Positions 9,218-35,247 of a DNA stretch of 64,000 nucleotides are shown in pieces (position 1 is the stretch's first letter; each line of letters opens with the position of its first letter). A program made the translations under genes and the position numbers. The stretch comes from an uncultured Alphaproteobacteria bacterium (GTDB taxonomy: Bacteria > Pseudomonadota > Alphaproteobacteria > HIMB59 > GCA-002718135), in NCBI GenBank assembly GCA_902575815.1, contig CACGTA010000001.1:8147-72146 (forward strand), written 5' to 3'. A model generated the notes under the pieces. That model made no database searches. It worked only from the letters and a program-made list of their open reading frames with translations, and had not been told where the DNA came from.

Positions 9218-10030
9218 ATGAAATTTGAAACAAACAAAAAATTTTACCGCACAATTTGGATTTCGGATACCCATCTAGGAACTAGTGGCTGTAAAAGCAA
9301 CATGCTTTTAGAATTCTTAGAAGAAACAGATTCAGAATATTTATTTTTAGTAGGCGACATTGTAGATGGATGGCGCATGCGTAAGAAAATGTATTGGCCA
9401 CAAGAACATAATGACGTTGTTCAAAAAGTTTTAAAGAAAGCGAAAAACGGAACTAAGGTAGTGCTTATTCCAGGAAATCATGATGAAGTATTAAAAGATT
9501 TTACAAATTTTTCTTTTGGAGAAATTTCGATCAAAAATGAAGATACGCATCAATTAGCTGATGGAAGAAAAGTACTTATTACACACGGAGATGAATTTGA
9601 TGCTGTGATCATTAATGCGAGGTGGTTAGCCAAAGTGGGATCAGCACTTTATGAATATTTACTAAAGTTAAATAATGTATTCAATTTTATTCGACGAAAG
9701 ATGGGCTTGTCTTATTGGTCACTGTCTCAATATTTAAAAAAGAAAACTAAGCATGCAACAAACTTTATTAGTAACTTTGAGTTTGCTGTATCTGACAGAG
9801 CTAGAAGAGAAAATGCCGATGTTGTCGTGTGCGGGCATATACATAGACCAGAAATAAAGGAATTAAATGGTGTTCTCTATTGTAATGATGGTGACTGGAT
9901 TGAAAGTTGCACAGCACTCGTTGAAGATGAAATTGGCAATTTATCAATTCTTAATTGGCCCGAAGAAAGAGAAAAATTAAAATTAATTTCTTTTGAAGAA
10001 AGACGAAAAATAAAAGAGGATGCAGCCTAA
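9218..10030 (+). CDS. plcP: Metallophosphoesterase of the PlcP type (phospholipase C for phosphate-stress lipid remodelling), copy 1
   Basis: Calcineurin-like motifs ISDTHLG, GDIVDG, GNHD, HGDEFD and GHIH. It overlaps a GT4 glycosyltransferase, which is the plcP-agt arrangement described for marine heterotrophs. Confidence 0.75.
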   Translation: MKFETNKKFYRTIWISDTHLGTSGCKSNMLLEFLEETDSEYLFLVGDIVDGWRMRKKMYWPQEHNDVVQKVLKKAKNGTKVVLIPGNHDEVLKDFTNFSFGEISIKNEDTHQLADGRKVLITHGDEFDAVIINARWLAKVGSALYEYLLKLNNVFNFIRRKMGLSYWSLSQYLKKKTKHATNFISNFEFAVSDRARRENADVVVCGHIHRPEIKELNGVLYCNDGDWIESCTALVEDEIGNLSILNWPEEREKLKLISFEERRKIKEDAA

Positions 10031-11021
10031 AAAAATCGCGTTAATTAGTGATGCGTGGGTTCCTCAGGTAAATGGCGTAGTTACGACATTTCAAAGCATT
10101 ATACCTATTCTAGAAAAAAAAGGTTTTGAAATTAAAATATTACATCCTGAGATGTTTAATAATTTTAGTTATCCTAGGTACAAAGAAATTAAAATTTCTT
10201 ACAATACTAAAAAAGTTACTGAAAAATTTTTTAAAGAATTTAATCCAGATATTGTTCATATAATGACTGAAGGTCCAGTAGGTTTTGCTGGTCGTAAGTA
10301 CTGTCTTAAAAATAAACTACAATACACTTCTTCCTTTCACACCCGTTTTCCTGACTACATTAAGCAAAGAGCTTTTATCCCAAAGAGATTTACATACTCC
10401 ATATTAAGAAGACTACATAGTGATTCAGAAAGAGTTCTTGTTCCATCAGTTTCAATGCTAAATGAGTTAAAAAAATATGATTTTAAAAATTTAGTAGTTT
10501 GGAATAGAGGTGTTGATACAGAATTATTTAATCCAAATAAAAGAGACACAAACAGTAAAGATAGACAACTGACTTATGTTGGTAGAGTAGCAATTGAAAA
10601 AAATATTGAAGAATTTTTAAATCTTAAAGGAAATTATAATAAAACTGTTGTGGGTGATGGTCCCGAATTACAAAAATATATTTATAAATATCCTGAAGTA
10701 AATTTTGTCGGTGTAAAAACTGGAGATGAACTAGCGAAATATTATGCAAACGCAGATGTATTTGTCTTTCCTTCTAAAACAGACACTTTAGGAAATGTAA
10801 TACTTGAAGCATTGGCTAGTGGAACACCAATTGCTGCATATCCAGTAACCGGGCCCATAGATGTGTTAACAGATGAAAAGATTAACACTTTAGATAATAA
10901 CTTGTTACAATCAGTTAAGAAGGCACTTAAAGTAAAAAGAGTTGATTGTAGAAATTTTACTCTTAAATTAACTTGGGACAAATGTGTGAATGAATTTTTA
11001 GAATTTATGGTAAAAGTTTAG
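10020..11021 (+). CDS. agt: GT4 glycosyltransferase, Agt-like diacylglycerol glycosyltransferase, copy 1
   Basis: N-terminal SDAWVPQVNGVV and C-terminal FVFPSKTDTLGNVILEALASGTP (GT-B, E-x7-E region). It overlaps plcP by 11 nt. Confidence 0.75.
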   Translation: MQPKKIALISDAWVPQVNGVVTTFQSIIPILEKKGFEIKILHPEMFNNFSYPRYKEIKISYNTKKVTEKFFKEFNPDIVHIMTEGPVGFAGRKYCLKNKLQYTSSFHTRFPDYIKQRAFIPKRFTYSILRRLHSDSERVLVPSVSMLNELKKYDFKNLVVWNRGVDTELFNPNKRDTNSKDRQLTYVGRVAIEKNIEEFLNLKGNYNKTVVGDGPELQKYIYKYPEVNFVGVKTGDELAKYYANADVFVFPSKTDTLGNVILEALASGTPIAAYPVTGPIDVLTDEKINTLDNNLLQSVKKALKVKRVDCRNFTLKLTWDKCVNEFLEFMVKV

Positions 11022-15251: not shown

Positions 15252-15266
15252 AAATGGAATTTAATC

Positions 15267-15315
15267 CCACTCACAATAATTGGACATAAGCAGGAAGAAA
15301 TAATACTGCGAGTGG
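15267..15315. terminator. Long hairpin inside repeat copy 1, between convergent ppk and agt2; possible bidirectional terminator
   Basis: CCACTCACA ... TGCGAGTGG (9 bp, one G-U on one strand), extended by AATAAT/ATTATT-type pairs. The T-rich tracts are not immediately adjacent. Confidence 0.35.
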
Positions 15316-15394
15316 TAAGATGTAATTAAATTTTATTTTTTACAGACGTGTTAATAGAATATTAAATTTTTATAAATTAAACTAATTTTTTAAT

Positions 15395-15458
15395 TTATTG
15401 GTTTTCAAATAAATTTTTTAGTTCCTTCAATTTTTGAAAATTGAATCTCTTACTTCTT
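15395..15458 (-). pseudogene. Decayed fragment of the arsC 3-prime end
   Basis: This stretch aligns to the last ~20 codons of arsC (18409-18469). A 1-nt deletion breaks the frame (ATTTTCAAAAATTGAAGG versus ATTTTTGATAAATTGAAAG). No upstream coding part is present. Confidence 0.55.
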
Positions 15459-15477: not shown

Positions 15478-16473
15478 TTAATTTTTTGCATTTACAACAT
15501 TTGATAGAAATTGATTTGCACATTTATCCCAAGTAAATTGCATTGCAAATTTTCTACAATCTTTTCTATCAATCTTTAAGGCTTTATTAAGTGAGTTTTC
15601 AATATTATTATCAAGGCTATCAATTAATGAGTTTTTTAAAATATCTTTAGGACCTGTTACTGGGTACGCAGCCACTGGTGTGCCAGAGGCTAAAGACTCT
15701 AAAATTACATTTCCAAATGTATCTGTTTTGGATGGGAATACCAATGCTTCAGCATTTGCATAATAGTTTGCTAGGTCTTGACCTTTTTTCATCCCAACGA
15801 AAGACACATATGGATATTTATTTTGTAATCGTTGCTTTTCTGGACCATCTCCAACAACAATTTTATGCATCTTAGTTCTTATTTCTAAAAACGCTTCGAT
15901 GTTTTTTTCTAATGAAACCCTACCAATGTAAACAATATACTTTTTCATTCCCTTTTTTCTTTTTAAAGGATTAAATAATTCAGTATTAACTCCCCTTGAC
16001 CAAATTTTAAGATTTTGAAATTGATATTTAGTTAATTCGTTACGCATAGATATTGTTGGAACCAATACATTACATGCATTTTTATGAAAATTTTTTAAAA
16101 AAGAGTACCCAATTATTTTTGGTATCATTATTCTTTGCTCTAAATATTCTGGAAATCTCGTATGAAAAGAGGTTGTATATCTCAACTTATTATTCTCACA
16201 GAATTTTTTCCCCGCAATTCCAACTGGTCCTTCAGTGGCAATATGTATAACATCTGGATCATAATCACCAAAAAATTTTTCTGTTATTTTTTTTGTATTA
16301 ATTGCTATTTTTATTTCCTTATACCAAGGATAACTAAAATTAGTAAACATCATTGGGTGGAGTACTTCAATTTGATACTTTTGTTTTAAAAATGGATTAA
16401 TATGTTGGTATGTATTTACCACACCATTAACTTGGGGAAGCCAAGCATCGGTAATGATCGCTAATTTTTTCAC
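15478..16473 (-). CDS. agt: GT4 glycosyltransferase, Agt-like, copy 2
   Basis: 331 aa and collinear with copy 1 (TDAWLPQVNGVV...FPSKTDTFGNVILESLASGTP). It is roughly two-thirds identical by eye. Confidence 0.75.
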   Translation of the reverse strand: MKKLAIITDAWLPQVNGVVNTYQHINPFLKQKYQIEVLHPMMFTNFSYPWYKEIKIAINTKKITEKFFGDYDPDVIHIATEGPVGIAGKKFCENNKLRYTTSFHTRFPEYLEQRIMIPKIIGYSFLKNFHKNACNVLVPTISMRNELTKYQFQNLKIWSRGVNTELFNPLKRKKGMKKYIVYIGRVSLEKNIEAFLEIRTKMHKIVVGDGPEKQRLQNKYPYVSFVGMKKGQDLANYYANAEALVFPSKTDTFGNVILESLASGTPVAAYPVTGPKDILKNSLIDSLDNNIENSLNKALKIDRKDCRKFAMQFTWDKCANQFLSNVVNAKN

Positions 16474-17276
16474 ACTAATACACTTTCTGCTAGTTTGTTA
16501 TGTTTATGTTGAAAAATTTTTTCTCTTTCAATTGACCAGTCAATAAGGGATAATTGTCCCTCATTATTTTCCACTAGCGCAGAACAACTCTCAACCCAAT
16601 CACCATCATTGCAATATAAAACTCCATTTAATTTTTTTATAATGGGCTTATGAATATGGCCGCACACAACAACATCAGCATTTGCTCTTTTAGCACTATC
16701 AGATACGGCAAACTCAAAGTTAGAAATAAAATTCGTGGCTCTTTTTGTTTGATGTTTGAGAAATTGAGATAATGACCAATAAGATAGACCTAGTTTTCTT
16801 CTGACAAAATTTAGATAGTTATTCAACTTTAATATAAATTCGTATAGAGATGACCCAATACTTGCCAGCCATTTAGCGTTTAATATAACTGCATCAAATT
16901 CATCACCATGTAAAACAAGGGCATTTCTTCCATCAGCTAATTTGTGTGTAAACTTATTTTTTATTGATATATTCCCTAGTGAAAAACTTGTGTAACTTTT
17001 CACAAGTTCGTCATGATTACCTGGGATAAATATTACTTTTGTACCTTTTCTTGCTTTACGCAAAATCTTCTGGATAATGTCATTATGAGTTTGATGCCAA
17101 TAAATTTTTTTTTTCATTCTCCATGCATCAATAATATCGCCAACTAAAAATAAATATTTTGAATCTGTTGATCTCAAAAATTCAAGAAGCATTTCACTCT
17201 TGCTATTTTCTGTTCCAAGATGAAGATCAGATATCCATATAGTTCTATAATATGAAACTGATTGCTGATCTTTCAT
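16470..17276 (-). CDS. plcP: PlcP-type metallophosphoesterase, copy 2
   Basis: It carries the same motif set as copy 1 (ISDLHLG, GDIIDA, GNHD, HGDEFD, GHIH). It overlaps agt2 by 4 nt. Confidence 0.75.
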   Translation of the reverse strand: MKDQQSVSYYRTIWISDLHLGTENSKSEMLLEFLRSTDSKYLFLVGDIIDAWRMKKKIYWHQTHNDIIQKILRKARKGTKVIFIPGNHDELVKSYTSFSLGNISIKNKFTHKLADGRNALVLHGDEFDAVILNAKWLASIGSSLYEFILKLNNYLNFVRRKLGLSYWSLSQFLKHQTKRATNFISNFEFAVSDSAKRANADVVVCGHIHKPIIKKLNGVLYCNDGDWVESCSALVENNEGQLSLIDWSIEREKIFQHKHNKLAESVLV

Positions 17277-17302
17277 TTTATTAATAAATAATAGAAAGAA
17301 TT

Positions 17303-17320
17303 TGTTAAAATTTTATTTCA
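17303..17320 (-). promoter_or_regulatory. Pho-box-like phased heptamer pair upstream of plcP copy 2
   Basis: The minus strand reads TGAAATA-AAAT-TTTAACA, then 9 nt, then TATTAT (-10-like), then 11 nt to the ATG. Confidence 0.4.
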
Positions 17321-17354
17321 ATTACATTAACTAAATTTTTTTTTTACAGAAGTA

Positions 17355-18197
17355 TTAATTAAATATTGAGTTTTTATTACTTGGATCTAATCTATAAGTG
17401 CTATTCCTTAAAAATTTTGTAATCTCAATAAGATTGCCAATTTCTTTTATGGTTTCAAAGGGTATTCTTTGTCCAATGTGAACATCAATTTTTTTTCCCA
17501 TTCTTCTTTTAAGTTCATATATCATTAAAGAATATCGAAAGACTTGCCCAATTTTATCAGCAACATGAAAAAGTTCACTATTTTGTCCTTCAAAAAAAAT
17601 TGGGAGGACAGGTGATTGAGTTTTCATTATTATTTTTGAAGTAAATTGTTTCCATTCACGATCTATTGCTTTGATTCCTTTTTTTAATTTTGGTTTCGTT
17701 GAAACTGATCCTGATGGAAAAATGATTAGTGCCCCATTATTTCTTAAGTGTTCTTCGCATTCTTTACGTGCAGCGATATTATTTATTAAAGCATTTCTAT
17801 TTTTTGAAAAATCAAGAGGAATAATTTTATTCTTAATAAGATCTGCTCCTTGTAAAACTTTATGCGTAATAATTTTGTAATCTTGTCTAATTTTACTAAT
17901 TAAAGAGCATATTGTAAGACCATCAGCTATTCCAAATGCATGGTTAGCGATTACTACAAGTTTGCCATTTTTAGGAATATTACTTTTAGAATGATAATGT
18001 GTCTGAACACGGAGACCTAATCTTTCAATTGCATCATGCCAAAAATTCTCTGGAGGTAAATTTTCTCTTAAATAATCCTCATACAACTTACGTAACTTAA
18101 TTTTACCCGTTCCCAATTCGGTTAATTGAATAATAATCTTTCCAACAGGATTAACTTCGGAGTTAGAAAAGGTAAGCGCTGGTTTATTAATTTTCAT
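17355..18197 (-). CDS. Lysophospholipid acyltransferase family protein (PlsC/OlsA-like)
   Basis: H-x4-D motif NHAFGIADG and the FPSGSVS block. It is 280 aa and co-directional with plcP2-agt2. Confidence 0.7.
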   Translation of the reverse strand: MKINKPALTFSNSEVNPVGKIIIQLTELGTGKIKLRKLYEDYLRENLPPENFWHDAIERLGLRVQTHYHSKSNIPKNGKLVVIANHAFGIADGLTICSLISKIRQDYKIITHKVLQGADLIKNKIIPLDFSKNRNALINNIAARKECEEHLRNNGALIIFPSGSVSTKPKLKKGIKAIDREWKQFTSKIIMKTQSPVLPIFFEGQNSELFHVADKIGQVFRYSLMIYELKRRMGKKIDVHIGQRIPFETIKEIGNLIEITKFLRNSTYRLDPSNKNSIFN

Positions 18198-18227: not shown

Positions 18228-18245
18228 TGTTAAACAATTGTTAAA
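18228..18245 (-). promoter_or_regulatory. Pho-box-like perfect heptamer pair upstream of the acyltransferase
   Basis: The minus strand reads TTTAACA-ATTG-TTTAACA and ends 30 nt upstream of the ATG. Confidence 0.45.
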
Positions 18246-18271
18246 GTACTCGAAAAAGGAGAAATAAAAAA

Positions 18272-18469
18272 TTAATCCCACTCACAATTATTGGTAATTA
18301 GCAGGAGGAAATAATACTGTGAGTGGTAAGAAGCATTTAAATTTTATTGTTTACAGATAGATTAATGGAATATTAAATTTTTATAAATTTAATTAATTTT
18401 TAACTTCATTAATTCTCAAATAAATTTTTTAGTTCTTTCAATTTATCAAAAATTGAATCTCTTACTTCT
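18272..18469. repeat. Direct repeat copy 2 (includes the arsC 3-prime end and downstream hairpin)
   Basis: See copy 1. This copy is continuous with the intact arsC. Confidence 0.85.
18278..18326 (-). terminator. Hairpin downstream of arsC; possible terminator or structured leader of the acyltransferase
   Basis: CCACTCACA ... TGTGAGTGG is a perfect 9 bp stem with AT extensions. On the minus strand it is followed by GATTAATTTTTTATTT. Confidence 0.4.
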
Positions 18470-19052: not shown

Positions 19053-19119
19053 ATCTTCTCCTAAATTCTATATATTGCGAATATTACACTTTACTTAAAG
19101 ATAAAGATATTAATCAAAT

Positions 19120-19137
19120 TGTAACAAAAATTTAACA
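19120..19137 (+). promoter_or_regulatory. Pho-box-like phased heptamer pair in the arsC-operon / pit-operon divergent spacer
   Basis: The plus strand reads TGTAACA-AAAA-TTTAACA and ends 38 nt before the DUF47 ATG. Confidence 0.4.
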
Positions 19138-19175: not shown

Positions 19176-19838
19176 ATGTTTGGATTAAAAAGTGCATCAT
19201 TATTTGGTGATACCAAAAAGCTTGAAAGAGAAATTGATGAGTTTGTTGATATTGTCTCTGAAGTGGGCTTAGTATTTAAATCGATAGTTCCAACTTATCT
19301 CAATCATTCCGCCAATGGTAAATTTGAGGAAATGGTTGAAAAAGTTAAAGAAATGGAAAGTAAGGCCGACAAAATTACAAAAGATGTTGAGCATACTCTT
19401 TATGAAGAAACACTAATCCCAGATGCAAGAAGTGATGTGTTACGACTTCTAGAACACATCGACGAATTAATTGGAATGTACCAAGGAAATTGCTATCACT
19501 TCTCTATTCAAAAACCTAATTTTCCAAAAGAATTTCATGAAGATCTTATTGAGTTAACAGAGACTGTTGTAAATTGTGTTGAGTCACTTTGTTTGACTGT
19601 CCGATCATTTTTTAGAGATATTAAATCTGTTAGAGATAATGCTCATAAAGTAACTTTTTATGAAAAAGAATCTGATATAAAATTTAGTTCACTTGCAAGA
19701 AGAATTTTTGATTCTGAATTGCCTCTAGATCAAAAAATGCATCTTCGATATTTTGTAGAAAAGATTGATCGTATTTGTGATCAAGCAGAAGACATAGCTG
19801 ACGAGGTTCAAATTTACGCTATTAAACGTTCCGTTTAA
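19176..19838 (+). CDS. DUF47 / PhoU-like putative phosphate transport regulator (Pit accessory protein)
   Basis: 220-aa helical protein of the kind that precedes PiT-family transporters. It ends 6 nt before pit. Confidence 0.8.
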   Translation: MFGLKSASLFGDTKKLEREIDEFVDIVSEVGLVFKSIVPTYLNHSANGKFEEMVEKVKEMESKADKITKDVEHTLYEETLIPDARSDVLRLLEHIDELIGMYQGNCYHFSIQKPNFPKEFHEDLIELTETVVNCVESLCLTVRSFFRDIKSVRDNAHKVTFYEKESDIKFSSLARRIFDSELPLDQKMHLRYFVEKIDRICDQAEDIADEVQIYAIKRSV

Positions 19839-19844
19839 TTTTCA

Positions 19845-20897
19845 ATGGAAATTACAATTCTAATTTTTTTATTTGGTGGTCTTTTTTTAGGTTGGTCACT
19901 TGGTGCCAATGATGCAGCAAATGTTTTTGGAACTGCAGTTGGAACACGAATGGTTAGTTTCACAAGTGCAGCAATAATTTGTAGTGTCTTTGTTATTCTA
20001 GGTGCAATTATTAGCGGAGCAGGTACAACAGAAACCTTAGGAAAGTTAGGTGCTATTAATGCATTGCCTGGTGCTTTTGCAGCATGTGTTGCTGCAGGAA
20101 TATCTGTTTATTTAATGACTAAAGTTGGCTTGCCTGTTTCAACAACGCAAGCGATTGTTGGAGCAATTGTTGGTTGGAATTTATACACGGGATCTTCAAC
20201 TAATCTTCAAGTTTTAATTACTATTTTAGGAACATGGATACTCTGTCCTATTATTGCAGGAGTTATTGCAATGGGTTTATTTACTTTTACAAAAAGAGTT
20301 ATACTCAATAGAAAGTTACATATTCTCAGACTTGATGCCTATACAAGAACAGCTTTACTTTTAGCGGGTGCTTTTGGTGCTTATAGTTTAGGTGCAAACA
20401 ATATTGCCAATGTAATGGGTGTCTTCGTACCTATATCACTGTTTACTGATGTTACTATTGGAAATTTATTTGTCTTTTCCTCAAAAGAACAATTATTTTT
20501 TCTAGGTGGTTTAGCAATAGCTGTTGGTGTTTTTACTTACTCGAAAAGAGTTATGTTTACCGTTGGTAATGATCTCTTAAAAATGACACCAGTGGCAGCA
20601 TTTATTGTTGTTATATCGCATTCTATTGTTTTATTTTTATTTGCATCCCAGGGTATAAGTGCTTTTTTACAATCTATAAATCTTCCCTCTATACCTTTGG
20701 TACCAGTATCAAGTTCCCAAGCTGTTGTTGGCGGCGTAATTGGAATTGGTCTTTTAAAAGGAGGAAAAGAGGTTCAATGGTCAATTGCAGGAAGAATTTC
20801 CTTGGGTTGGATGACGCTACCTATAATTGCAGCTTTAATTTCTTTAATTGTTTTATTTATTCTAGAAAATATTTTTAATTTAACGGTCTCTTTTTAA
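19845..20897 (+). CDS. pitA: Inorganic phosphate transporter, PiT family
   Basis: The GANDAANVFGTAVGT signature is repeated as GANNIANVMG in the second half. It is a 350-aa polytopic protein. Confidence 0.9.
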   Translation: MEITILIFLFGGLFLGWSLGANDAANVFGTAVGTRMVSFTSAAIICSVFVILGAIISGAGTTETLGKLGAINALPGAFAACVAAGISVYLMTKVGLPVSTTQAIVGAIVGWNLYTGSSTNLQVLITILGTWILCPIIAGVIAMGLFTFTKRVILNRKLHILRLDAYTRTALLLAGAFGAYSLGANNIANVMGVFVPISLFTDVTIGNLFVFSSKEQLFFLGGLAIAVGVFTYSKRVMFTVGNDLLKMTPVAAFIVVISHSIVLFLFASQGISAFLQSINLPSIPLVPVSSSQAVVGGVIGIGLLKGGKEVQWSIAGRISLGWMTLPIIAALISLIVLFILENIFNLTVSF

Positions 20898-21418
20898 TTA
20901 ACTGCTCGATAAGAAAAAATAAAATCTTCCTGAATTTTAGATTCAATAGCCCCTTTTCTTCTTGCTCGAACTAGATCAATAGCATCTTGTTTTTCATAAT
21001 TGAATTCAACAAGTAAAATAGCAGCTATAGTGCCAGCCCTTCCTTTACCTCCACGGCAATGTAAAACTATATTTTTTCCATCTATCAATTCGTTCTTTAA
21101 TAAAACTTTTGTTGTTTCCCATTTATATTTAAAATCTTTATCTGGTGCTCCCATGTCATAAATGGGTAAATGGTACCAATGTAATTTATGTTTATAAATA
21201 CTTTTGACAAACAAAGTTTTATCACACAATTTTTCAAATTCGCTATCTTCAACAAAAGAAGTAATAGAACTACAATAATTATTTTTAAACATTTCTAATT
21301 CGTTTGTTAAAATTGTTTCTTCAAATAAACCATTAGAGTTAAGACCTGGAAAAGAAGTTAATATAATTTTTCCTGCAAATGACTTAGAGTCAATAAAATC
21401 ATAATTGCTAAATTGCAT
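20894..21418 (-). CDS. Dual-specificity / Cys-based protein phosphatase-like protein
   Basis: HCRGGKGRAGT (HC-x5-R-[ST]) P-loop with an upstream LPIYDMGAP general-acid loop. Its start abuts the phnZ stop. Confidence 0.7.
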   Translation of the reverse strand: MQFSNYDFIDSKSFAGKIILTSFPGLNSNGLFEETILTNELEMFKNNYCSSITSFVEDSEFEKLCDKTLFVKSIYKHKLHWYHLPIYDMGAPDKDFKYKWETTKVLLKNELIDGKNIVLHCRGGKGRAGTIAAILLVEFNYEKQDAIDLVRARRKGAIESKIQEDFIFSYRAVN

Positions 21419-21994
21419 TTACGCGTGTTTAGCTAAAAAAGACTGTCTTGCTTCTTCTAAATAGGGGCGAAAATGTTCAACATCGGGAGTTTTTTTATCT
21501 AGAATTTTTGCTAGATCATCAAATCTTCTAAGCTCTACTGCCTCATCCATAAAAGGTTTGCTTATAAACGCATCTGCTTCTTCTTTTGTGAAAGGACCAC
21601 CTTGAACTTTTAAAGAAAGTTTCGATGCTTCTGATAGACTATCATAATAACCTTCTTCAACACTTGATAAATATCTTTTTGAATCAACATGTGCTCTTAT
21701 TGGTAAAATAACATCTTCACCAAAATATTTTTTTAAAAAATCAGCACCTAAGTTTTCATGATGACCATCTTTCCCTTCATGAATGGGATCGCCGTCCTCA
21801 TAAATAAGGTGGCCAACATCATGCAGTAATGCTGCAGCAATTGTTGGTCCTGGTAATTTATTTTTTTCAGCAAGTTCAGCGCATTGGAGTGCGTGCTCAA
21901 GCTGAGTCACATCCTCATTACCATATTGAGTATCAGCACCTTTTGTTTTCAAAAGATCTAAGAGATAATCTACGATATTTTCTTCCATTCTCAT
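21419..21994 (-). CDS. phnZ: HD-domain phosphonate oxygenase, PhnZ-like (PhnZ/TmpB family)
   Basis: 191 aa with QLEHALQCA, ALLHDVGH, HHENLGADFL, AHVDSKRYL, LS.AS...L..QGGP and RRFDD. This is the ligand spacing I recall for the di-iron PhnZ. Confidence 0.7.
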   Translation of the reverse strand: MRMEENIVDYLLDLLKTKGADTQYGNEDVTQLEHALQCAELAEKNKLPGPTIAAALLHDVGHLIYEDGDPIHEGKDGHHENLGADFLKKYFGEDVILPIRAHVDSKRYLSSVEEGYYDSLSEASKLSLKVQGGPFTKEEADAFISKPFMDEAVELRRFDDLAKILDKKTPDVEHFRPYLEEARQSFLAKHA

Positions 21995-22082
21995 TTATAA
22001 TTAACTTATTAGAAAATAAATTCAATTCCAACTTTAATAAGATTGATCAAATTTATAATAATATTTATTAAGTAAATATTTA

Positions 22083-23180
22083 ATGGATAAAAAATTATTA
22101 ACCCCTGGTCCTCTCACGACATCGATGTCAACAAAAGAGGCTATGCTTCATGATTGGGGTTCGAGAGATACAAAATTTATTGATCTCAATGCATCAATTA
22201 GAGATTCCCTTGTTAAATTAATAGACGGTGAAGATAAATATCAATGTGTTCCAATGCAGGGAAGTGGAACTTTTGCCGTAGAGTCGATGGTAAGCTCTCT
22301 TACTCAAAAAGATTCTAAAATTCTGATTCTGATCAATGGTGCTTACGGACAAAGAATGAAAAAAATGTGCACATATTTAGGGAGAGATTTTATTGAATAT
22401 GAAGTTGCTGAACATGAAGTACATGACATCAATAAAATTGAAGACTTAATTGATAGCAACAACTTAACACACGTCTTTGCTGTATATTGTGAAACAACAT
22501 CGGGTATTTTAAATCCTATTGAAGACATTGCAAAATTGGTTGAGGGGAAAAATTTATCGTTATTCATCGATGCAATGAGTGCCTTTGGTGCATTACCCTT
22601 AAGTTCTAAAACAATTACTTTTGATGCTGTAGCCGCTTCATCAAACAAATGCTTAGAAGGTGTGCCAGGTGTTGGTTTCATTCTTGTTAAAAATGAAGTT
22701 ATTCAAAATGCAAAAGGCAATAGTCACTCACTAAGTCTAGACTTGTATGATCAATGGCAAGCAATGGAAAAAAATAAACAATGGCGATTTACACCTCCAA
22801 CACACGTATTAGCTGCATTCAACCAAGCTATTGAAGAACATAAAGAACAAGGCGGTGTAGAGGGACGAGGCAAAAGATATAAAAAAAATTGTGAAATTAT
22901 TTGTAATGGAATGAAAGAGTTGGGATTTGAGCAACTACTTCCTGATAATTTGCAAGCACCAATTATTATTACGTTTAAACAACCTAGTGATCCTAAATTT
23001 AACTTTGATAAATTTTATAATGCTCTTAGTGAAAAAAATTTTTTAATTTATCCAGGAAAACTAACAGTGGCAGCAACTTTTAGAATTGGGTGTATTGGTA
23101 ATTTAGATGAACAAGACATGATGGATACAATAAAAGCTGTAAAAGAAGTCGTTACTGAATTGGGATTAACATTAAACTAA
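22083..23180 (+). CDS. phnW: 2-aminoethylphosphonate--pyruvate transaminase
   Basis: N-terminal LLTPGPLTTS and the PLP-lysine region SSNKCLEGVPG. It is 365 aa. Confidence 0.9.
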   Translation: MDKKLLTPGPLTTSMSTKEAMLHDWGSRDTKFIDLNASIRDSLVKLIDGEDKYQCVPMQGSGTFAVESMVSSLTQKDSKILILINGAYGQRMKKMCTYLGRDFIEYEVAEHEVHDINKIEDLIDSNNLTHVFAVYCETTSGILNPIEDIAKLVEGKNLSLFIDAMSAFGALPLSSKTITFDAVAASSNKCLEGVPGVGFILVKNEVIQNAKGNSHSLSLDLYDQWQAMEKNKQWRFTPPTHVLAAFNQAIEEHKEQGGVEGRGKRYKKNCEIICNGMKELGFEQLLPDNLQAPIIITFKQPSDPKFNFDKFYNALSEKNFLIYPGKLTVAATFRIGCIGNLDEQDMMDTIKAVKEVVTELGLTLN

Positions 23181-23187
23181 CAAAATA

Positions 23188-23820
23188 ATGACAATAAAAA
23201 TTGAAATACCTTTAGTTAAAGCAACAAATGAAAATCTTAAAGGATATGGGTATTTAATCGATAGTTTTGAAAATAGTGATATTGAAATTGTTACTTGGCC
23301 AAAACAAGGATGGCGCGACATAGAAGAGGGAACTGGTAATGAAGGTGGAACTACCGAAGGTTCTTTTGATACCTGGTGGCAAGGTGAAGTGCTTTATGGG
23401 CAAAATAATGCTGTTCAACATAAGAGCGATTATGAAGTAGATGGAAAATATATACTGGGTTATGCCAATAATCCTGATCAAGAATTACAAAAAGATAAAT
23501 ATTCAGATCCAACAAAAATTTTTTTATGGCATGCAAATTATCATCCTGATGGAGGTCAGCTTTTCTTTCCTGAAGAAAATAAACCATTTATTTGTCCTTT
23601 AGCCTTACCAACAGACGACATTGAACCAGAACATTTTAAAGCATTTTATTGTGACGGATCAAAGGGTTTGTATATTCATCCAAATATTTGGCATGAAGGG
23701 GTGTTTCCAGTTACAGAAAAACAATCTTTTCAAGGAAAACAAGGTAAAGTACATGCAAGAGTTAGTATTGATTTAAAAGAAGAGTTTGACAAATATATCT
23801 TTTTTAAAACTAGAATTTAA
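23188..23820 (+). CDS. Ureidoglycolate-lyase (AllA)-fold protein of unknown function
   Basis: The pattern GYGYLI ... YHPDGGQLFFP ... IHPNIWHEG resembles, from memory, the AllA blocks (YG..I, RHP.GTQ.F.P, YH.N.WH). It starts 7 nt after phnW. Confidence 0.4.
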   Translation: MTIKIEIPLVKATNENLKGYGYLIDSFENSDIEIVTWPKQGWRDIEEGTGNEGGTTEGSFDTWWQGEVLYGQNNAVQHKSDYEVDGKYILGYANNPDQELQKDKYSDPTKIFLWHANYHPDGGQLFFPEENKPFICPLALPTDDIEPEHFKAFYCDGSKGLYIHPNIWHEGVFPVTEKQSFQGKQGKVHARVSIDLKEEFDKYIFFKTRI

Positions 23821-27783: not shown

Positions 27784-28890
27784 TTATTTTTTTTCGATTA
27801 CAAATATTTCATTGTTAAAATAAAGACCTTTATTTTTAGCAACAATATTTTGAACTACTTTTTCGTAATTTTTTGTTTTTTCTACCTTCATTACTTTATC
27901 ATCATCCATTTGATTGACATATATGGAGGCATTCCAAGCAGAAAAAACTAATGATGTCGCTATACCTCCACTGATTTCTGTTGGTAGAGCTCTCAATTTA
28001 CATTTAATAATTCTTTTTTCTCCAAAAGATAAACTACTTAATAAATCTTTATCTAAATTTTTCTTAAGATAAGAAATGATACTATTTCCAAGAGAAGGAA
28101 AAGGGTCCTCTTTTGGCCAAATTTTACGAATTATTTCATTAGCAGGATCTTTTCCTGAAGCATGAATGGTTAATAATTTCCCTTTTGATTTTAATGCTCT
28201 AATCATTGGTTCGATAACGTATTTTGATTTCTTTTCTGCTGAAATTCTTGAACGATAAGGCTGTGAAGCAATAATAAGATCAAATTTATTATCTGATTTT
28301 TTTTTGGTAGGAATTAATTCATTAACATTAAATTCTTGATCTTCGCGGTAGATAACCATGACTGAAGGCTCTTTATAAGTATGGTTACCTGACTTTTTAT
28401 TAATTTCTATATTCCATTTTTTTTCTAAAAATTCATTTTGTTTTCTTAATTGTTGAGCAAATTCAAGAGAAGTGTCACCTTTTAATTTAATAATATTCCA
28501 ATTAATTTTTTTCTGTTTAACTTCATTTTTTGATTTTAGGTTTGCGGCTTCAGCGTAGTGTAGATTTGAAATGACAAAAACGGTATTCTTATGTTCAACA
28601 AACCTATCGGGTAATTTTTCTAGACCTAATCTTACATCTTCTATGCTTATTTCTTTTGTGCAAACTAATAAAGGTACGTTAGGCCTGGCCTCGTGGCACT
28701 GACGCATAACATTCATAAGTAAGGAACCATCACCCATACCAGCATCAAATATTTTTATGCCAGGTTTTTGAGGTTTAATTTTATTTACGTGAGGGCGTAT
28801 CGCATCGGCAATTTGATTTTTTTCATTTGTTGTTGTGACAAATAATAAATATTTTTGTCTGTTATCATAAAACCTAAAATTTTTTTTCAT
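27784..28890 (-). CDS. Class I SAM-methyltransferase-like protein, function unknown
   Basis: IFDAGMGDGSL (motif I-like), DLIIASQ and GKLLTIH blocks. It is 368 aa and starts 2 nt after the Fe-ADH gene. Confidence 0.4.
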   Translation of the reverse strand: MKKNFRFYDNRQKYLLFVTTTNEKNQIADAIRPHVNKIKPQKPGIKIFDAGMGDGSLLMNVMRQCHEARPNVPLLVCTKEISIEDVRLGLEKLPDRFVEHKNTVFVISNLHYAEAANLKSKNEVKQKKINWNIIKLKGDTSLEFAQQLRKQNEFLEKKWNIEINKKSGNHTYKEPSVMVIYREDQEFNVNELIPTKKKSDNKFDLIIASQPYRSRISAEKKSKYVIEPMIRALKSKGKLLTIHASGKDPANEIIRKIWPKEDPFPSLGNSIISYLKKNLDKDLLSSLSFGEKRIIKCKLRALPTEISGGIATSLVFSAWNASIYVNQMDDDKVMKVEKTKNYEKVVQNIVAKNKGLYFNNEIFVIEKK

Positions 28891-28892
28891 TA

Positions 28893-30005
28893 CTAATAAA
28901 GTCCCATTGATTTAGCAGAAGAGATGAAGGCTTCTTTATTGCCAATAAAGTTTTTACCTCGTTCCCCTAAAAACGCATCATCTACTATATTATTCCATTC
29001 TTGAACAGGAACTTTTATTTCATTTAAGTTAAGAGGAACCTCTAAAGAACGCATAAATTCACTCAGATGATTTGCAGCATTCTCTAGATTATCGTTAAAA
29101 ATTAATTTTAGTCTTTCTTCAGCGACACTATCAATTCCAACCATACTTTTAGTAATCATCGGTAAAGTAAATGAACAAGCAATACCATGCTGAATACCGT
29201 AATTGAGTGTCACGGGGTATGATAGATTATGCGCAATAGCAGTTTTCGTATTGGAAAACGCTAAGCCAGCATGAACGCACGCCAATGCAATGTTTGAACG
29301 TAATTCAATGTTTCTTAAATCTTTAGCGAGAAGTGGTAAATTTTCTAATACTAATTTTGATGCTTGTATTGCATGTGAAGCAGAAACTGGGTTTGCATTA
29401 ATATTCCAAATACTTTCCATTGAATGGGAGAGAGCATCTAAACCAGTTGAAATGGTCAAGCCTAAAGGTTTATCAACCATAATAGATGGATCGATAATTG
29501 CTTTTTCTGCATAAAGAGATTTATGCACCAAAGATAATTTATTATTGTTTTCTTTATCCCATATTGTGGCCCAACACGTAAGCTCACTTGATGCTCCTGA
29601 AGTTGTAGGTATTGCAATAATCTTGATTGGATTTTCGACTCTTGGATTTTTCTTATTACGAACGAAATCTGTTAGATATTCTTGTTTATCTTTAAATGTA
29701 GCAATTGCTTTAGCTGTGTCTGTAACAGAGCCACCACCTATAGCTAAAATATAATCTACCGATTCATTGATTGAAGAAAATTTATTTTGCAACTCTAAAA
29801 TATCCTTATAATCTGGATTAGGCTGAACATCGGTCATAATGGATAAAGGTGGGTTTGAAGAAAATTTTAATTCATCGCTATATTTTTTAAAAATTTCCTC
29901 TGGATGAGTGATTATGATGTAGTTCTTATTTTTAAGAGCATCATGCACTTCTTTAAATCTATTTTCTCCAAAGATAATTTCAACAGGGTTAAAATAATTC
30001 CACAT
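28893..30005 (-). CDS. Iron-containing alcohol dehydrogenase, phosphonate-associated type (phosphonoacetaldehyde / 2-hydroxyethylphosphonate oxidoreductase candidate)
   Basis: Fe-ADH blocks GGGSVTDTAK, PTTSGASSE and the His cluster (ALSHSMES, AHNLSYP). A phosphonate-linked Fe-ADH subfamily is established. Confidence 0.75.
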   Translation of the reverse strand: MWNYFNPVEIIFGENRFKEVHDALKNKNYIIITHPEEIFKKYSDELKFSSNPPLSIMTDVQPNPDYKDILELQNKFSSINESVDYILAIGGGSVTDTAKAIATFKDKQEYLTDFVRNKKNPRVENPIKIIAIPTTSGASSELTCWATIWDKENNNKLSLVHKSLYAEKAIIDPSIMVDKPLGLTISTGLDALSHSMESIWNINANPVSASHAIQASKLVLENLPLLAKDLRNIELRSNIALACVHAGLAFSNTKTAIAHNLSYPVTLNYGIQHGIACSFTLPMITKSMVGIDSVAEERLKLIFNDNLENAANHLSEFMRSLEVPLNLNEIKVPVQEWNNIVDDAFLGERGKNFIGNKEAFISSAKSMGLY

Positions 30006-30009
30006 TACC

Positions 30010-31089
30010 TTAAATTGATTTTGCCGCTTTAGTTAAAATTGTCATTTTCTCAATTGCTTGTTCTCGCGTGAAGAAACCTAAACCACAATCTGGTGCAGCT
30101 ATTAAACGGTGTTCATCAATATGTTCAAGTGAATCTTTGATACGAACTCTTACTTCTTCAACAGACTCCATTCTACTTTTTGCAATATCAATAAATCCAA
30201 AAATTACTTTTGTTTTAGTAAATTTTTCTAAAAGATTTAAATCATTATGCCTATGTGAATCTTCTAAAGATACTTCATCAATAGTTGAATCATCTACCAG
30301 TGATGCAATTCTATCATAAGCATCTAGATCAGCCTTTTTATACCCTTCTGAATCTAATGAGTTAGGATAACCACAACAAATATGGCAAACGCGTTGCACT
30401 TCTTTAGGAATACCATGCATCATTCTTTCTAAATTTTCCATACCATATGAATGAGCTTCATCGGGTTTTCTAGCAAATACTGGTTCATCAATTTGAATAT
30501 ACTGACAACCTGCATCCACAAGTGCCTTAATTTCTTTATTGAGAGCTAATGCTAAATCAAAACCAAGTTTTTTCATGTCATCATAGTAATTGTTGGCAAT
30601 TGAATCTGTAATTGTCATTGGTCCAGGTAGCGTAATTTTAACTGGGTTTTTTGTAAATTGTTGTGCACTCTTCCAGTCTAAATGCATACGTATTTCTTTA
30701 CTTGAAATCGGTGCAACAATAGTTGGAAGGTCAGCTTCGAACGCACCTTGTCTTACTGACTTATGTGTAACTTCCTTAAAACTTACTCCATTTAAAAATC
30801 TGCATTGATATAATACATAACTCTCGCGTCTGACTTCTCCATCTGTTGGAACATCAATACCTGCATTTACTTGATCAGTTATAACTTCTTTAATTGCTGC
30901 TAAAAATAATTTTTCAGCATCTGCACCTGCAGACTCTAATGCTTTTTCATATGCGCCAGGTGACCAATTTGATAATAATCCTTTTGACGCTTTTCTCTCT
31001 TCTTCTGATTTTGTCCCTAAAAACCAATCTTGAATAGGTGTTTGTTTCGGTTTTGGATAAGCACCTATTGTAGTTGTTGTAAGAGGCAT
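30010..31089 (-). CDS. MetE C-terminal-domain-like (cobalamin-independent methionine synthase family) Zn-thiol alkyltransferase
   Basis: 359 aa. TTIGAYPKP N-terminus, HICCGY (His/Cys) and APDCGLGF (Cys) zinc-ligand motifs of the Meth_synt_2 fold. Confidence 0.7.
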   Translation of the reverse strand: MPLTTTTIGAYPKPKQTPIQDWFLGTKSEEERKASKGLLSNWSPGAYEKALESAGADAEKLFLAAIKEVITDQVNAGIDVPTDGEVRRESYVLYQCRFLNGVSFKEVTHKSVRQGAFEADLPTIVAPISSKEIRMHLDWKSAQQFTKNPVKITLPGPMTITDSIANNYYDDMKKLGFDLALALNKEIKALVDAGCQYIQIDEPVFARKPDEAHSYGMENLERMMHGIPKEVQRVCHICCGYPNSLDSEGYKKADLDAYDRIASLVDDSTIDEVSLEDSHRHNDLNLLEKFTKTKVIFGFIDIAKSRMESVEEVRVRIKDSLEHIDEHRLIAAPDCGLGFFTREQAIEKMTILTKAAKSI

Positions 31090-32481: not shown

Positions 32482-32499
32482 GGTTACAATTTTATTACG
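32482..32499 (-). promoter_or_regulatory. Pho-box-like phased heptamer pair upstream of the second binding-protein gene
   Basis: The minus strand reads CGTAATA-AAAT-TGTAACC, with one mismatch in each half. Confidence 0.3.
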
Positions 32500-32566
32500 A
32501 AAATATTACTAAAAAATAAGCTTATTTTTCCACAGCAATAAAGAAAAATTAGAGAAAAAATGATTT

Positions 32567-34009
32567 TTACCAGGGTAGTGAGAAGGTTTTTACATTAGTA
32601 AAGCTTTTCATTGCTTCAATTACACCTTCTTTATAACCAAGTCCTGAATCTTTAATTCCTCCAAAAGGAGACATTTCAATTCTATAGCCTGGAACTTCCC
32701 AAATATTTACAGTGCCAACATTTAAGCCTTGAATATATTTTTTTGCTCTCATGAAGTTATTTGTGCATACACCAGATGATAATCCGAATGCGGTTGAATT
32801 AGATATTTTCATTACAGCTTCATCGTCATTAGGCACACGAATGATTGGTATAACTGGACCAAATGTTTCTTCTAAAACTAATTCACTTTTAGGATCAACA
32901 TGATCTACAACTATTGGAGGTAACAAAGCACCCTTTCTTCCAGGGTGATATAAAATTTTTGCACCGTCTTCTTCAGCCATAGAAACTCTTTTATCAAAAA
33001 GTTCTGCAGCTTGAGCATTAACAACAGTACCTAAGTCTGTTTCCATATTCATAGGATCACCAAATTTAATTTTCTTAGCACGCTCAAGAGCCATTTCAAC
33101 AAATTGATCTGCAATGGATTCTTGAACCAATATTCTTTTTACAGCTGTACAACGTTGACCAGAATTTTTCGTTGCTCCAGTAACAGCTAGTTCAACAGCT
33201 TTTTTAAGATCATCACCATCTAAGTCATTTAAAACAATTAATGGATCATTACCGCCAAGCTCTAGTACTGTTCTTTTGTATCCAGCTTGTTCAGCAATTA
33301 ATTTTCCTACACCCACACTGCCTGTAAAAGTAATTAGATCAATGTTTGGATTTTTGATCATTTCTGATCCAATGTCTTGAGGCCATCCAGTTACAACTGA
33401 AAACATTTCAGGTGGTAAACCTGCTTCATATAAAACATCGGCGAGTACCATTGCTGTTAAAGGTGTTAATTCTGTTTGTTTACATACAGTACAATTATTA
33501 GTTGCAATTGAAGGTGCAATTTTATGCGCTACCATATTCAAAGGATGATTAAATGGGGTGATTGCTGAGATTGCCGTTAAAGGTTCTCTTATGGTAAATA
33601 TTTTTCTGGCTTTTCCATGTGGAGTTAAATCACAAGAAAATATTTCTCCATCATCATGAATACAAAGTTGAGCCGTTAATGAAAATACATCGAAAGCTCT
33701 TCCTACTTCGTATAAAGAATCTTGTTTTGAGATACCAAGTTCTAAAGTAATAATATCAGAAATTTCTTCTTTTCTTTTAACAAGTACTTCTGCAGCAGTT
33801 TGAAGAATTTTTTGTCTCTCATATCTTGTAAGTTTAGGCTGATAATTTGCAGCTATATCTAAAGCCTTTCTTGCATGCTCTGCGGTACCGGCTGGAACCG
33901 TTCCGATTACTTCACCTGTAAAAGGGTACTCAACATTTATTGTTTTATCTGAAGTAACTTTTTCTCCAGCAATACGCATTGCTTCATTAATCATTTTTTT
34001 GTGCATCAT
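32567..34009 (-). CDS. phnY: NAD-dependent aldehyde dehydrogenase, phosphonoacetaldehyde dehydrogenase candidate
   Basis: 480 aa with ALDH blocks ELGGNDP and GQRCTAVKR (catalytic Cys). It overlaps phnA by 4 nt. Confidence 0.75.
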
Positions 34010-35247
34010 AGGGCTCCATTTATTGCATAATAAAATGCATCATAGTTATATAATTGTTTGCTAGTATCTAAGTTTTGTAATTTTAAATTTGATATGAATG
34101 GCACTTCTCTTTCATGGAGTCCTCCATGAGAACGTAAAGGTTCATTTAATCCAGAAAGATTGTGTTTATCTTCCGATGAACCAATAGTCATAAATTCTGA
34201 AGACATACATATAATATCTCCCATTCTATCAGGAGGTAAATTGTAAGTAGAGCATCCTTCATCTTTTGTTAAAACAACTTCTATATCTTTTATTTCTTTA
34301 ATAGCATTTACAACTGAATCTACCTTGCTCTTGTCTTCTAAATAAATTGTTGCAAAAGAACCAAGTGAACCATGATGAACAACATATGGATCTGTAATTG
34401 GTAGGATGACTTTAGCCATGTTTGGTTCAAATTTTTTATCTAAATAATCTTGTAAAAATATTGCATTAGGTGAACCATCTTCTTTTGATTTTGGTTTCAT
34501 TCCGTGATCTGCTGTGATGATTATAGAAACATTCTCCTTATTTAAAAGACCAATATATTTATCAAACATTGCATAAAATTTATTTGCTGTTTCATTTCCC
34601 GGTGCATATTTGTGTTGAATATAATCCGTAGTCGATAAATACATAATATTTGGTTTAAACTCTTCAAGAAGTTTTACACCTGCAGCCATTACAAATTCAG
34701 AGAGTCCTTCAGAATATACTTCTGGCACTGGCATCCCCAACCAATCGTTTACATTATCTATACCATTGAGATCTTTTGTTGCTTGATCAGATTTTTCAGC
34801 AGAAAAACAAATAGCTCTCTCATCATCAAAACTTAATCCGTTTCCTAAAAGTGTTCTCAACTTGTCTTTTGCAGTAACAAGAGCAATTTTAGAACCAGAA
34901 TTGTAAAATTTTTCAAAAATAGTTGGTGCTCGCATATATTTTGGGTCATTCATCATTACTTCTTCACCAGTCTCAGGTGTATAAAAGAAGTTTCCGCATA
35001 TACCGTGTACAGAACTTGGTTGGCCTGTTACAATCGAAATGTTATTTGGATTTGTAAAACTTGGAATAGCGCTGTGAACAAGTAGGTTTTCACCACTTGC
35101 AATTAATTTATCAAGATTTGGTGTAAGATTAGATTTTGATGCTTCTTCGAGATACTCTTTTTGACTGCCATCAAGGCAAATCACAATAGCAGTTTTTGAA
35201 AAATTACTTGGATATTCTCTTTTATTAATTTCTAAGTTATCGGACAC
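34006..35247 (-). CDS. phnA: Phosphonoacetate hydrolase (alkaline phosphatase superfamily)
   Basis: 413 aa. [14 protein letters not shown]-terminus, TADHGM metal site and NPP/AP-superfamily layout match PhnA-type hydrolases. Confidence 0.75.

Follow-up and report, generated by a model that had tools for sequence, protein, structure and literature searches.

What does a PhnZ-like oxygenase do when no hydroxylase is encoded beside it and its immediate neighbour is a phosphatase? The question is raised by a 64-kb stretch of contig CACGTA010000001.1 from an uncultured alphaproteobacterium (assembly GCA_902575815.1; the whole stretch, 64,000 nucleotides at about 31% GC, is called the window below), in which a gene for an HD-domain protein of the PhnZ family runs directly into a gene for a cysteine-based phosphatase with the fold of the protein tyrosine phosphatases (PTP) and dual-specificity phosphatases (DSP). 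An earlier reading of this DNA, made from the sequence alone (hereafter, the sequence-only reading), had drawn attention to the pair. We find that a PhnZ without its hydroxylase is already known, and that what is new here is a lineage-specific phosphatase partner of a PhnZ-type oxygenase. The window is a phosphate-starvation island of SAR11, and the HD gene lies inside a phnW/phnY/phnA cluster. We think, with a little more belief than doubt, that the locus is the aminophosphonate branch of this phosphate-scavenging island, in which the HD protein would act on a phosphonate that is already hydroxylated, and the phosphatase on a phosphomonoester of the same pool.

The first step is the identity of the HD protein, which the sequence-only reading had likened to PhnZ from the spacing of its His and Asp residues, a likeness that holds. 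Its top match is the NCBIfam model TIGR03276, "phosphonate degradation HD-domain oxygenase" (202.7 bits, just under the trusted cutoff; E 3e-60), and it aligns over its full length with two enzymes in the PDB, TmpB of Leisingera caerulea (6NPA, E 2e-33) and PhnZ of the uncultured bacterium HF130_AEPn_1 (4MLM, E 8e-29; also 4MLN). With these two enzymes and with GmPhnZ1 of Gimesia maris it shares the HD fold family, the six iron ligands and the Tyr/Glu/His residues of the substrate site. The metal ligands (H34, H58, D59, H80, H104 and D161 in PhnZ) are all present in the window protein, in nine of nine sequences of the SAR11 clade and in at least 137 of the 138 other PhnZ-family representatives of a 149-member alignment. 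The equivalents of Y24, E27 and H62 of PhnZ are likewise present, and unchanged across the SAR11 clade; since Glu27 is also kept in TmpB, it does not discriminate between types of amine. On this basis the HD protein is predicted to be a mixed-valent di-iron oxygenase of the PhnZ family. Unlike PhnZ, TmpB and GmPhnZ1, it has no 2-oxoglutarate (2OG) hydroxylase adjoining it or fused to it, and a Cys phosphatase stands next to it instead. A HMMER search for its homologues returned 3295 representatives at E <= 1e-3, among which the nearest complete one (P0361) is 71% identical, a few fragments reach 70-88% over part of the protein, and all others are at most 53% identical. The SAR11 HD proteins form a separate clade, distinct from every characterised PhnZ type.

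The two genes abut exactly. The TAA stop codon of the HD gene (21421-21419) is followed at once by the ATG of the phosphatase gene (21418-21416), a spacer of 0 nt that had been noted before, and from this gene order we propose that the pair is probably co-transcribed and that its translation is probably coupled. Many HD homologues begin at the second Met, which gives 189 aa. The phosphatase motifs LPIYDMGAP and HCRGGKGRAGT are confirmed in the translated reading frame, and the protein scores above the cutoffs of the Pfam families PTP-SAK (49.3 versus 27 bits), Tc-R-P (32.3 versus 27) and Y_phosphatase (25.8 versus 20.9), and below that of DSPc (28.2 versus 33.5). A search of the PDB by sequence gives the archaeal SsoPTP (E 1e-10) as its best solved relative, followed by PRL-1 (E 4e-9). 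An AlphaFold 2 (AF2) model (pLDDT 90.9, pTM 0.88), submitted to Foldseek, matches KAP, PRL, SsoPTP and PTPMT1 at TM 0.65-0.78, with a Foldseek probability of 1.00 for KAP, PRL and SsoPTP. The description of this Cys-based protein as "eukaryote-style" was imprecise, the best solved relative being archaeal and the best Pfam family bacterial.

Across 16 aligned homologues, 54-88% identical to the window protein, D88 and the P-loop residues H120, C121, G123, G124, G126, R127, G129 and T130 are unchanged. The P-loop consensus is HC(R/W/M/K)GGKGR(A/S)GT, in which the Lys at X4 is nearly invariant, and D88, in the motif HLPIxD (PIYD), aligns with the IPD motif of SsoPTP. C121 is the predicted nucleophile in HCRGGKGRAGT and D88 the predicted general acid; P-loop, Asp and modelled fold together point to a Cys-dependent enzyme of the PTP/DSP fold. 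With the small phosphatases of this kind (SsoPTP 2I6I, PRL-1/2/3, KAP/CDKN3, Tk-PTP, PTPMT1 and Pfam PTP-SAK) the SAR11 enzyme has in common the HCX5R(S/T) P-loop, the upstream general-acid Asp and the Rossmann-like PTP fold. It differs from them in sequence (just 20-32% identity), in an N-terminal beta extension of about 35 residues and in its confinement to SAR11 and to phosphonate neighbourhoods, and its substrate is probably no protein, in contrast to enzymes of the SsoPTP/PRL/KAP kind. No signal peptide is visible by eye. Both genes of the pair are under purifying selection (the phosphatase gene has a median dN/dS, the ratio of nonsynonymous to synonymous substitution rates, of 0.14 and the HD gene one of 0.10, at dS values close to saturation).

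How firmly does the phosphatase belong to the oxygenase? Its family is small and marine (246 protein clusters among 5.8 billion proteins; 115 species-level genomes), and we inspected neighbourhoods of about 10 kb on either side in 80 of the 115 carrier species genomes. All 80 are single-cell or metagenome genomes of SAR11/Pelagibacteraceae; the phosphatase gene of the window is 100% identical to contig 5 of the single-cell genome AG-892-A10. The adjacency, whose absence from relatives would by the sequence-only reading have counted against its idea, is conserved in these genomes, with the HD gene directly 5' of the phosphatase in 79 of 79 informative genomes (the 80th locus begins at a contig end) and a spacer of 0 nt in 65 of the loci, 2-6 nt in 13 and 298 nt in one. 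The 5' side of the HD gene is occupied by phnW and a ureidoglycolate-lyase-like ("cupin") gene in 73-74 of the 79 loci; in L077, L078 and L080 the upstream genes encode an EamA protein, an ABC transporter for 2-aminoethylphosphonate (2-AEP) and an aminophosphonate oxidoreductase (FAD oxidase) of the TIGR03329 type. In divergent clades, in which the phosphatase is 57-63% identical, the order is HD, PhnS2 on the other strand, and then PhnT2-PhnU2-phosphatase, such that the phosphatase closes the 2-AEP transporter operon after the permease and the HD gene lies at the opposite end of the transporter genes. Among the inspected loci the phosphatase was not seen outside phosphonate gene neighbourhoods. 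The sequence-only reading had placed the pairing outside the known phosphonate pathways, and this agrees with the literature, in which we found no paper linking a PTP/DSP phosphatase to phosphonate genes.

Some further observations concern possible fusions. Two proteins that looked like natural HD-DSP fusions (P0122 and P0002) are chimeric extensions and were rejected, and no such fusion occurs among the 79 loci. An exact-sequence look-up placed the phosphatase and the HD protein in one and the same 90%-identity cluster (2704 members; 174 and 189-191 aa), which would require a bridging fused protein or an error in the table. A 522-aa protein (L096, 5968-7536) on a high-GC contig from a viral collection has as its N-terminal domain a remote relative of the phosphatase (33% identity); by eye, its C-terminal part resembles an ADP-ribosylglycohydrolase, and this fusion probably explains the JGI label "ADP-ribosyl-[dinitrogen reductase] hydrolase" on some SAR11 homologues. 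We regard this viral-contig relative as uninformative for SAR11.

The lack of a hydroxylase, to which the sequence-only reading had pointed, is on the other hand documented. A survey of complete genomes counted phnZ in 24 of 75 phnWAY clusters (32%) and in 15 of 1186 phnWX clusters, as against only 7 phnY*Z clusters, and never together with pbfA (PMC8154272). In ocean metagenomes, 9.4% of genomes carry PhnZ and 1.6% carry PhnY*; PhnZ is 3-6 times commoner than PhnY* (PMC3266647). Given the published pattern of phnWAY with phnZ, the "missing hydroxylase" is not new. The sequence-only reading had recognised the phosphatase as a neighbour and overlooked the phnW, phnY and phnA genes of the same window (Table 1). 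The window resembles the phnWAY clusters with accessory phnZ (Zangelmi et al. 2021, PMC8154272, Table 1) in that phnW, phnY, phnA and phnZ are all present and PhnY* and pbfA are not, and the functional reading is the same. It differs in that its phnWAY genes lie scattered along some 14 kb of a Pho island, among ugp-like and other genes (phnY and phnA lie 11-13 kb from the HD-phosphatase pair), and in that its phnW is paired with the ureidoglycolate-lyase-like protein; moreover, that survey deals with complete genomes of cultured bacteria, and the phosphatase partner present here is not mentioned there. In a compact relative (L090), phnW, phnY, phnA and phnZ all lie within about 7 kb.

How, then, would the aminophosphonate branch work? 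PhnW would convert 2-AEP into phosphonoacetaldehyde, PhnY would turn this into phosphonoacetate, and PhnA would split the latter into acetate and inorganic phosphate (Pi); the identities of the three genes are established and the flux through them we infer. In parallel to this route for 2-AEP, the HD protein would, with its irons in the mixed-valent Fe(II)/Fe(III) state, bind a 1-hydroxy-phosphonate through the hydroxyl and phosphonate oxygens, oxidise C1 with O2 and release Pi and a carboxylate by breaking the C-P bond. On our proposal a hydroxylase would be superfluous, as the substrate comes in pre-hydroxylated. This substrate would most likely be (R)-1-hydroxy-2-aminoethylphosphonate ((R)-HAEP), with glycine as the product, hydroxymethylphosphonate being also possible. 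The assignment draws on family membership, on the conserved ligands and on the way in which phnZ in phnWAY clusters has been interpreted in print, as a direct route for environmental (R)-HAEP, which is poorly processed by PhnW and PhnX (PMC8154272). Of the readings offered from the sequence alone, that of a pre-hydroxylated compound from the environment matches this interpretation, whereas that of a new partner enzyme in the place of the hydroxylase is unsupported, because a Cys phosphatase cannot install a hydroxyl. The phosphatase, presumed cytoplasmic, would work through a phospho-Cys121 intermediate (with C121, R127 and D88 as its catalytic residues) and would most likely free Pi from a phosphomonoester imported with, or derived from, the same pool of amino-organophosphorus compounds.

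Several points weigh against this explanation. The role that it assigns to the phosphatase is its weakest step, PhnZ chemistry requiring no phosphatase, and the substrates of both enzymes are assigned by inference from sequence and setting. As to the oxygenase, the TIGR03276 score falls short of the trusted cutoff of 214.6 (in an alignment that spans profile positions 2-176 of 179), the scores on the equivalog models for TmpB (NF049941, 158.6 bits) and GmPhnZ1 (NF052439, 154.6 bits) stay well below the cutoff of 300, and the distances are at most 0.28 inside the SAR11 clade and at least 0.54 to all other proteins (0.69 to PhnZ, 0.64 to TmpB); for a protein in a separate clade and below the equivalog cutoffs, the specificity may differ from that of all characterised PhnZ enzymes. 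SAR11 genomes are also highly syntenic, which makes adjacency within this one family a weaker sign of functional coupling. A crude and circular matrix, derived from four putative sites, detected no Pho-box-like site in the intergenic region between the HD gene and phnW. Finally, the hydroxylase search was confined to the window and to about 10 kb around the pair in the relatives.

The alternative that survives best, unlikely as we think it is, holds that the HD protein and the DSP act on one molecule. This would be an imported compound in which a C-P bond is combined with an ester or anhydride of phosphate, or else a pathway intermediate that is phosphorylated; the phosphatase would expose or complete what the oxygenase cleaves, and both phosphorus atoms would be recovered. 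An operon link that outlasts the rearrangement of both flanks would fit such a scheme, and so would the smallest clusters found in some clades, which consist of EamA, HD, PhnS2T2U2 and DSP only. The nearly invariant Lys at X4 of the P-loop also hints at it; this loop resembles those of the PTEN/VSP type, which bind poly-anionic substrates. Kinases of the choline-kinase family recur beside HD or phnW in related clusters, yet there is no kinase in the window, and we know of no natural compound of the required kind.

A further argument against a single shared molecule comes from natural fusions of PhnZ. Among 150 PhnZ-family representatives inspected for extra domains, 19 proteins carry one. The partners include 2OG oxygenases (six PhyH and two TauD/GBBH), and also PhnX, a PhnX-like HAD protein, PhnN, a Zn-alcohol dehydrogenase of the HpnZ/PbfG type, an MtnB-like protein of the class II aldolase fold and DUF5690 (these in P0368, P0371, P0372, P0385, P0387, P0404, P0434 and P0500), as well as transporters. 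This variety suggests that linkage to a second phosphonate-related enzyme other than a hydroxylase is common in the PhnZ family, and the fusions to PhnX, PhnN and alcohol dehydrogenases indicate that what is linked is often two parallel routes and not two successive steps. The comparison has its bounds: PhnX, PhnX-like HAD, PhnN and the alcohol dehydrogenase have known phosphonate roles and HAD, P-loop kinase or Zn-alcohol dehydrogenase folds, none of the fused partners has the PTP/DSP fold, and the natural fusions are single proteins, whereas the SAR11 HD-phosphatase link is an operon. We had also considered the PhnZ-HAD fusions as instances of a general "PhnZ plus phosphatase" theme and gave this up, as the HAD domains proved to be PhnX or PhnX-like phosphonatases.

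A bolder proposal, which we likewise consider unlikely, is that HD and DSP, together with a transporter of the PhnS2T2U2 type, form a self-contained and novel mineralisation route for an organophosphorus compound of seawater, with the phosphatase as the chemical partner of the C-P oxygenase. The phosphatase could then strip the phosphate from a phosphorylated hydroxy-phosphonate, or its target could be an activated phosphonyl intermediate. If this were true, most of the phnZ signal of the surface ocean would report that pathway and not the oxidation of 2-AEP.

Might the phosphatase instead have nothing to do with phosphonates, as a general phosphate-starvation enzyme, or a protein phosphatase or regulator, and have no more than a promoter in common with its neighbour in a compact genome? 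We hold this to be quite unlikely. It is true that the island is full of other phosphorus-scavenging genes, that the nearest solved relatives (KAP, PRL, SsoPTP) are protein phosphatases, and that the gene is convergent on that of the PHO4 transporter, which lies downstream of it in 68 of the 79 loci (in the window, the PhoU_div-PHO4 genes converge on it and both stop codons overlap), ArsC or other genes taking this place elsewhere. But in loci that have no PHO4 (L057, L060, L061, L064, L068, L070) the DSP is still beside HD, where it is parted from HD it joins the 2-AEP transporter operon, and in the loci inspected it was never seen away from phosphonate neighbourhoods.

Could a 2OG hydroxylase of the PhnY*/TmpA type be encoded elsewhere in the genome and supply the substrate, the HD protein being the second step of the classical pathway? 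This two-enzyme pathway is the textbook case, and just about 10 kb on either side was inspected in each genome, but we consider the idea decidedly unlikely. In agreement with the sequence-only reading, no 2OG dioxygenase was found in the window: none of its roughly 60 open reading frames (ORFs) matches the TauD or PhyH domains of Pfam, and when the window and some 95 related loci, translated in six frames, were searched with the eight 2OG-oxygenase domains that are fused to PhnZ elsewhere, nothing matched at E <= 1e-3. Nor was a 2OG hydroxylase found among the otherwise unmatched ORFs within about 10 kb in the 80 related species genomes. Characterised hydroxylase-PhnZ pairs adjoin or are fused (PMC10574752), and in ocean metagenomes PhnY* is several-fold rarer than PhnZ. 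In one case only, L100, does a TauD gene neighbour a related HD gene; it stands in DNA of 48% GC and the HD gene in DNA of 31% GC. This jump means that the contig is probably chimeric, and we set the gene aside as a partner.

Very improbable, lastly, is the notion that the ureidoglycolate-lyase-like protein, or another protein of the island, is a new hydroxylase replacing PhnY*, for although its gene is near HD in nearly all loci and the protein is rich in invariant His residues, it tracks phnW rather than HD (L093 has it together with phnW and phnX and lacks HD-DSP, and in L077 and L080 it is missing from the 10 kb around HD-DSP), the known chemistry of its family is a lyase reaction, and the other candidate, unk368 (27784-28890), looks like an S-adenosylmethionine (SAM) methyltransferase. 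The ureidoglycolate-lyase-like protein (found in the window, in L090 at 10001-10639 and in L093 at 7733-8371) has 3969 homologues; its AF2 model is unusable (pLDDT 46, from a shallow alignment), a profile search of the PDB matched it to AllA alone, along 70 residues, and we found no paper that gives it a part in phosphonate metabolism. As to unk368, which has no match in Pfam, NCBIfam or the PDB, it was rejected on a SAM-methyltransferase-like motif, IFDAGMGDGS, seen by eye.

We return to the aminophosphonate branch, and to why its oxygenase matters. Estimates of the abundance of phnZ in the surface ocean range from <1% to about 20% of bacterial genomes, with no consensus according to a 2023 review (PMC10574752). 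A survey that counted all PhnZ homologues attributed 45% of marine phnZ sequences to Pelagibacterales (PMC9381506), and another counted only three characterised phnZ subclades (PMC8316502); the gap arises because of this difference in what was counted, the higher figure taking in the Pelagibacterales sequences and the lower one the characterised subclades only. The SAR11 HD clade is probably the uncounted form that underlies the disputed abundance. Knowledge of the substrate of the HD protein would tell what phosphonate is mineralised, when phosphate runs short, by the most abundant heterotroph of the sea, and whether the product is glycine, which SAR11 requires. The phosphatase partner provides a concrete and cheap experimental handle on this question.

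Table 1. Positions in the window of the HD-phosphatase pair and of the features discussed with it
Feature	Position	Strand	Size, match or remark
HD oxygenase gene, PhnZ family	21419..21994	-	191 aa as called
Cys-based PTP/DSP-fold phosphatase gene (DSP), predicted	20894..21418	-	174 aa
Divergent intergenic region between HD-DSP and phnW-cupin	21995..22082	.	88 bp; presumed promoters
phnW, 2-aminoethylphosphonate--pyruvate transaminase	22083..23180	+	NF010006 508.3 bits (cutoff 296), TIGR02326 456.2 (400.8)
Ureidoglycolate-lyase-family protein ("cupin")	23188..23820	+	210 aa; Pfam Ureidogly_lyase 40 bits, C-terminal half only
Phosphonate-associated Fe-alcohol dehydrogenase	28893..30005	-	TIGR03405 363.5 bits (cutoff 423.7)
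phnY, phosphonoacetaldehyde dehydrogenase	32567..34009	-	TIGR03250 798.7 bits (cutoff 635.65)
phnA, phosphonoacetate hydrolase	34006..35247	-	TIGR02335 467.4 bits (cutoff 407.55)
PhoU_div (DUF47) + PHO4/Pit-type phosphate transporter	19176..20897	+	Pfam PhoU_div 81.9, PHO4 207.9 bits
PlcP-like metallophosphoesterase + GT4 glycosyltransferase pairs, two copies	9218-11021 and 15478-17276		

The rest of the window is in keeping with a phosphate-starvation island. It carries pstSCAB-phoU-phoB, phoR, ppk, ppx, an aquaporin gene, ArsC, an OlsF/GlsA-like acyltransferase gene and ugp-like genes, and also the two PlcP-like plus glycosyltransferase pairs, which we take to be lipid-remodelling machinery under phosphate stress. 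The ureidoglycolate-lyase-like gene starts 7 nt after phnW. The 88-bp region between the divergent operons contains conserved blocks, e.g. CTAATAAGTTAA and ATCAA..TTA (24 distinct versions from 75 loci). The Fe-alcohol dehydrogenase is a candidate 2-hydroxyethylphosphonate (HEP) dehydrogenase, and HEP dehydrogenases of the PhpC type have been described (PMC13576164).

Pho-box-like repeats of the form GTTAnAA-N4-(G/A)TTAnAA occur at 2358-2387, 17304-17322, 18229-18247, 19118-19136 (minus strand) and 32483-32501, where they precede phoU, the PlcP-like gene, the OlsF-like gene, PhoU_div and a solute-binding protein gene beside phnY. The matrix mentioned above was built on four of these sites and recovered them plus two more, a circular test. 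A direct repeat of about 140 nt, with copies about 88% identical at 15258-15400 and 18268-18408 and an internal hairpin (CCCACTCACA...TGYGAGTGG), flanks the glycosyltransferase/PlcP-like/OlsF-like block at 15478-18197; some related SAR11 loci have this block and others lack it, and the repeats may therefore mark the boundary of a cassette. A scan of the window against Rfam, these repeats included, gave no match.

The choline-kinase/APH-family kinases that recur in related loci stand beside HD or phnW in L077 (2271-3194), L093 (746-1618), L098 (5173-6048) and L101 (1-732), and none was found in the window. Their best NCBIfam match is GntI, below its cutoff, and they are often accompanied by an SDR protein and the TIGR03329 aminophosphonate oxidoreductase. 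Between the phnW and phnY blocks of the window lies a trio of genes (27784-31089) for a 368-aa protein, the Fe-alcohol dehydrogenase and a protein resembling the MetE catalytic domain, and the order of this trio is kept in most related loci.

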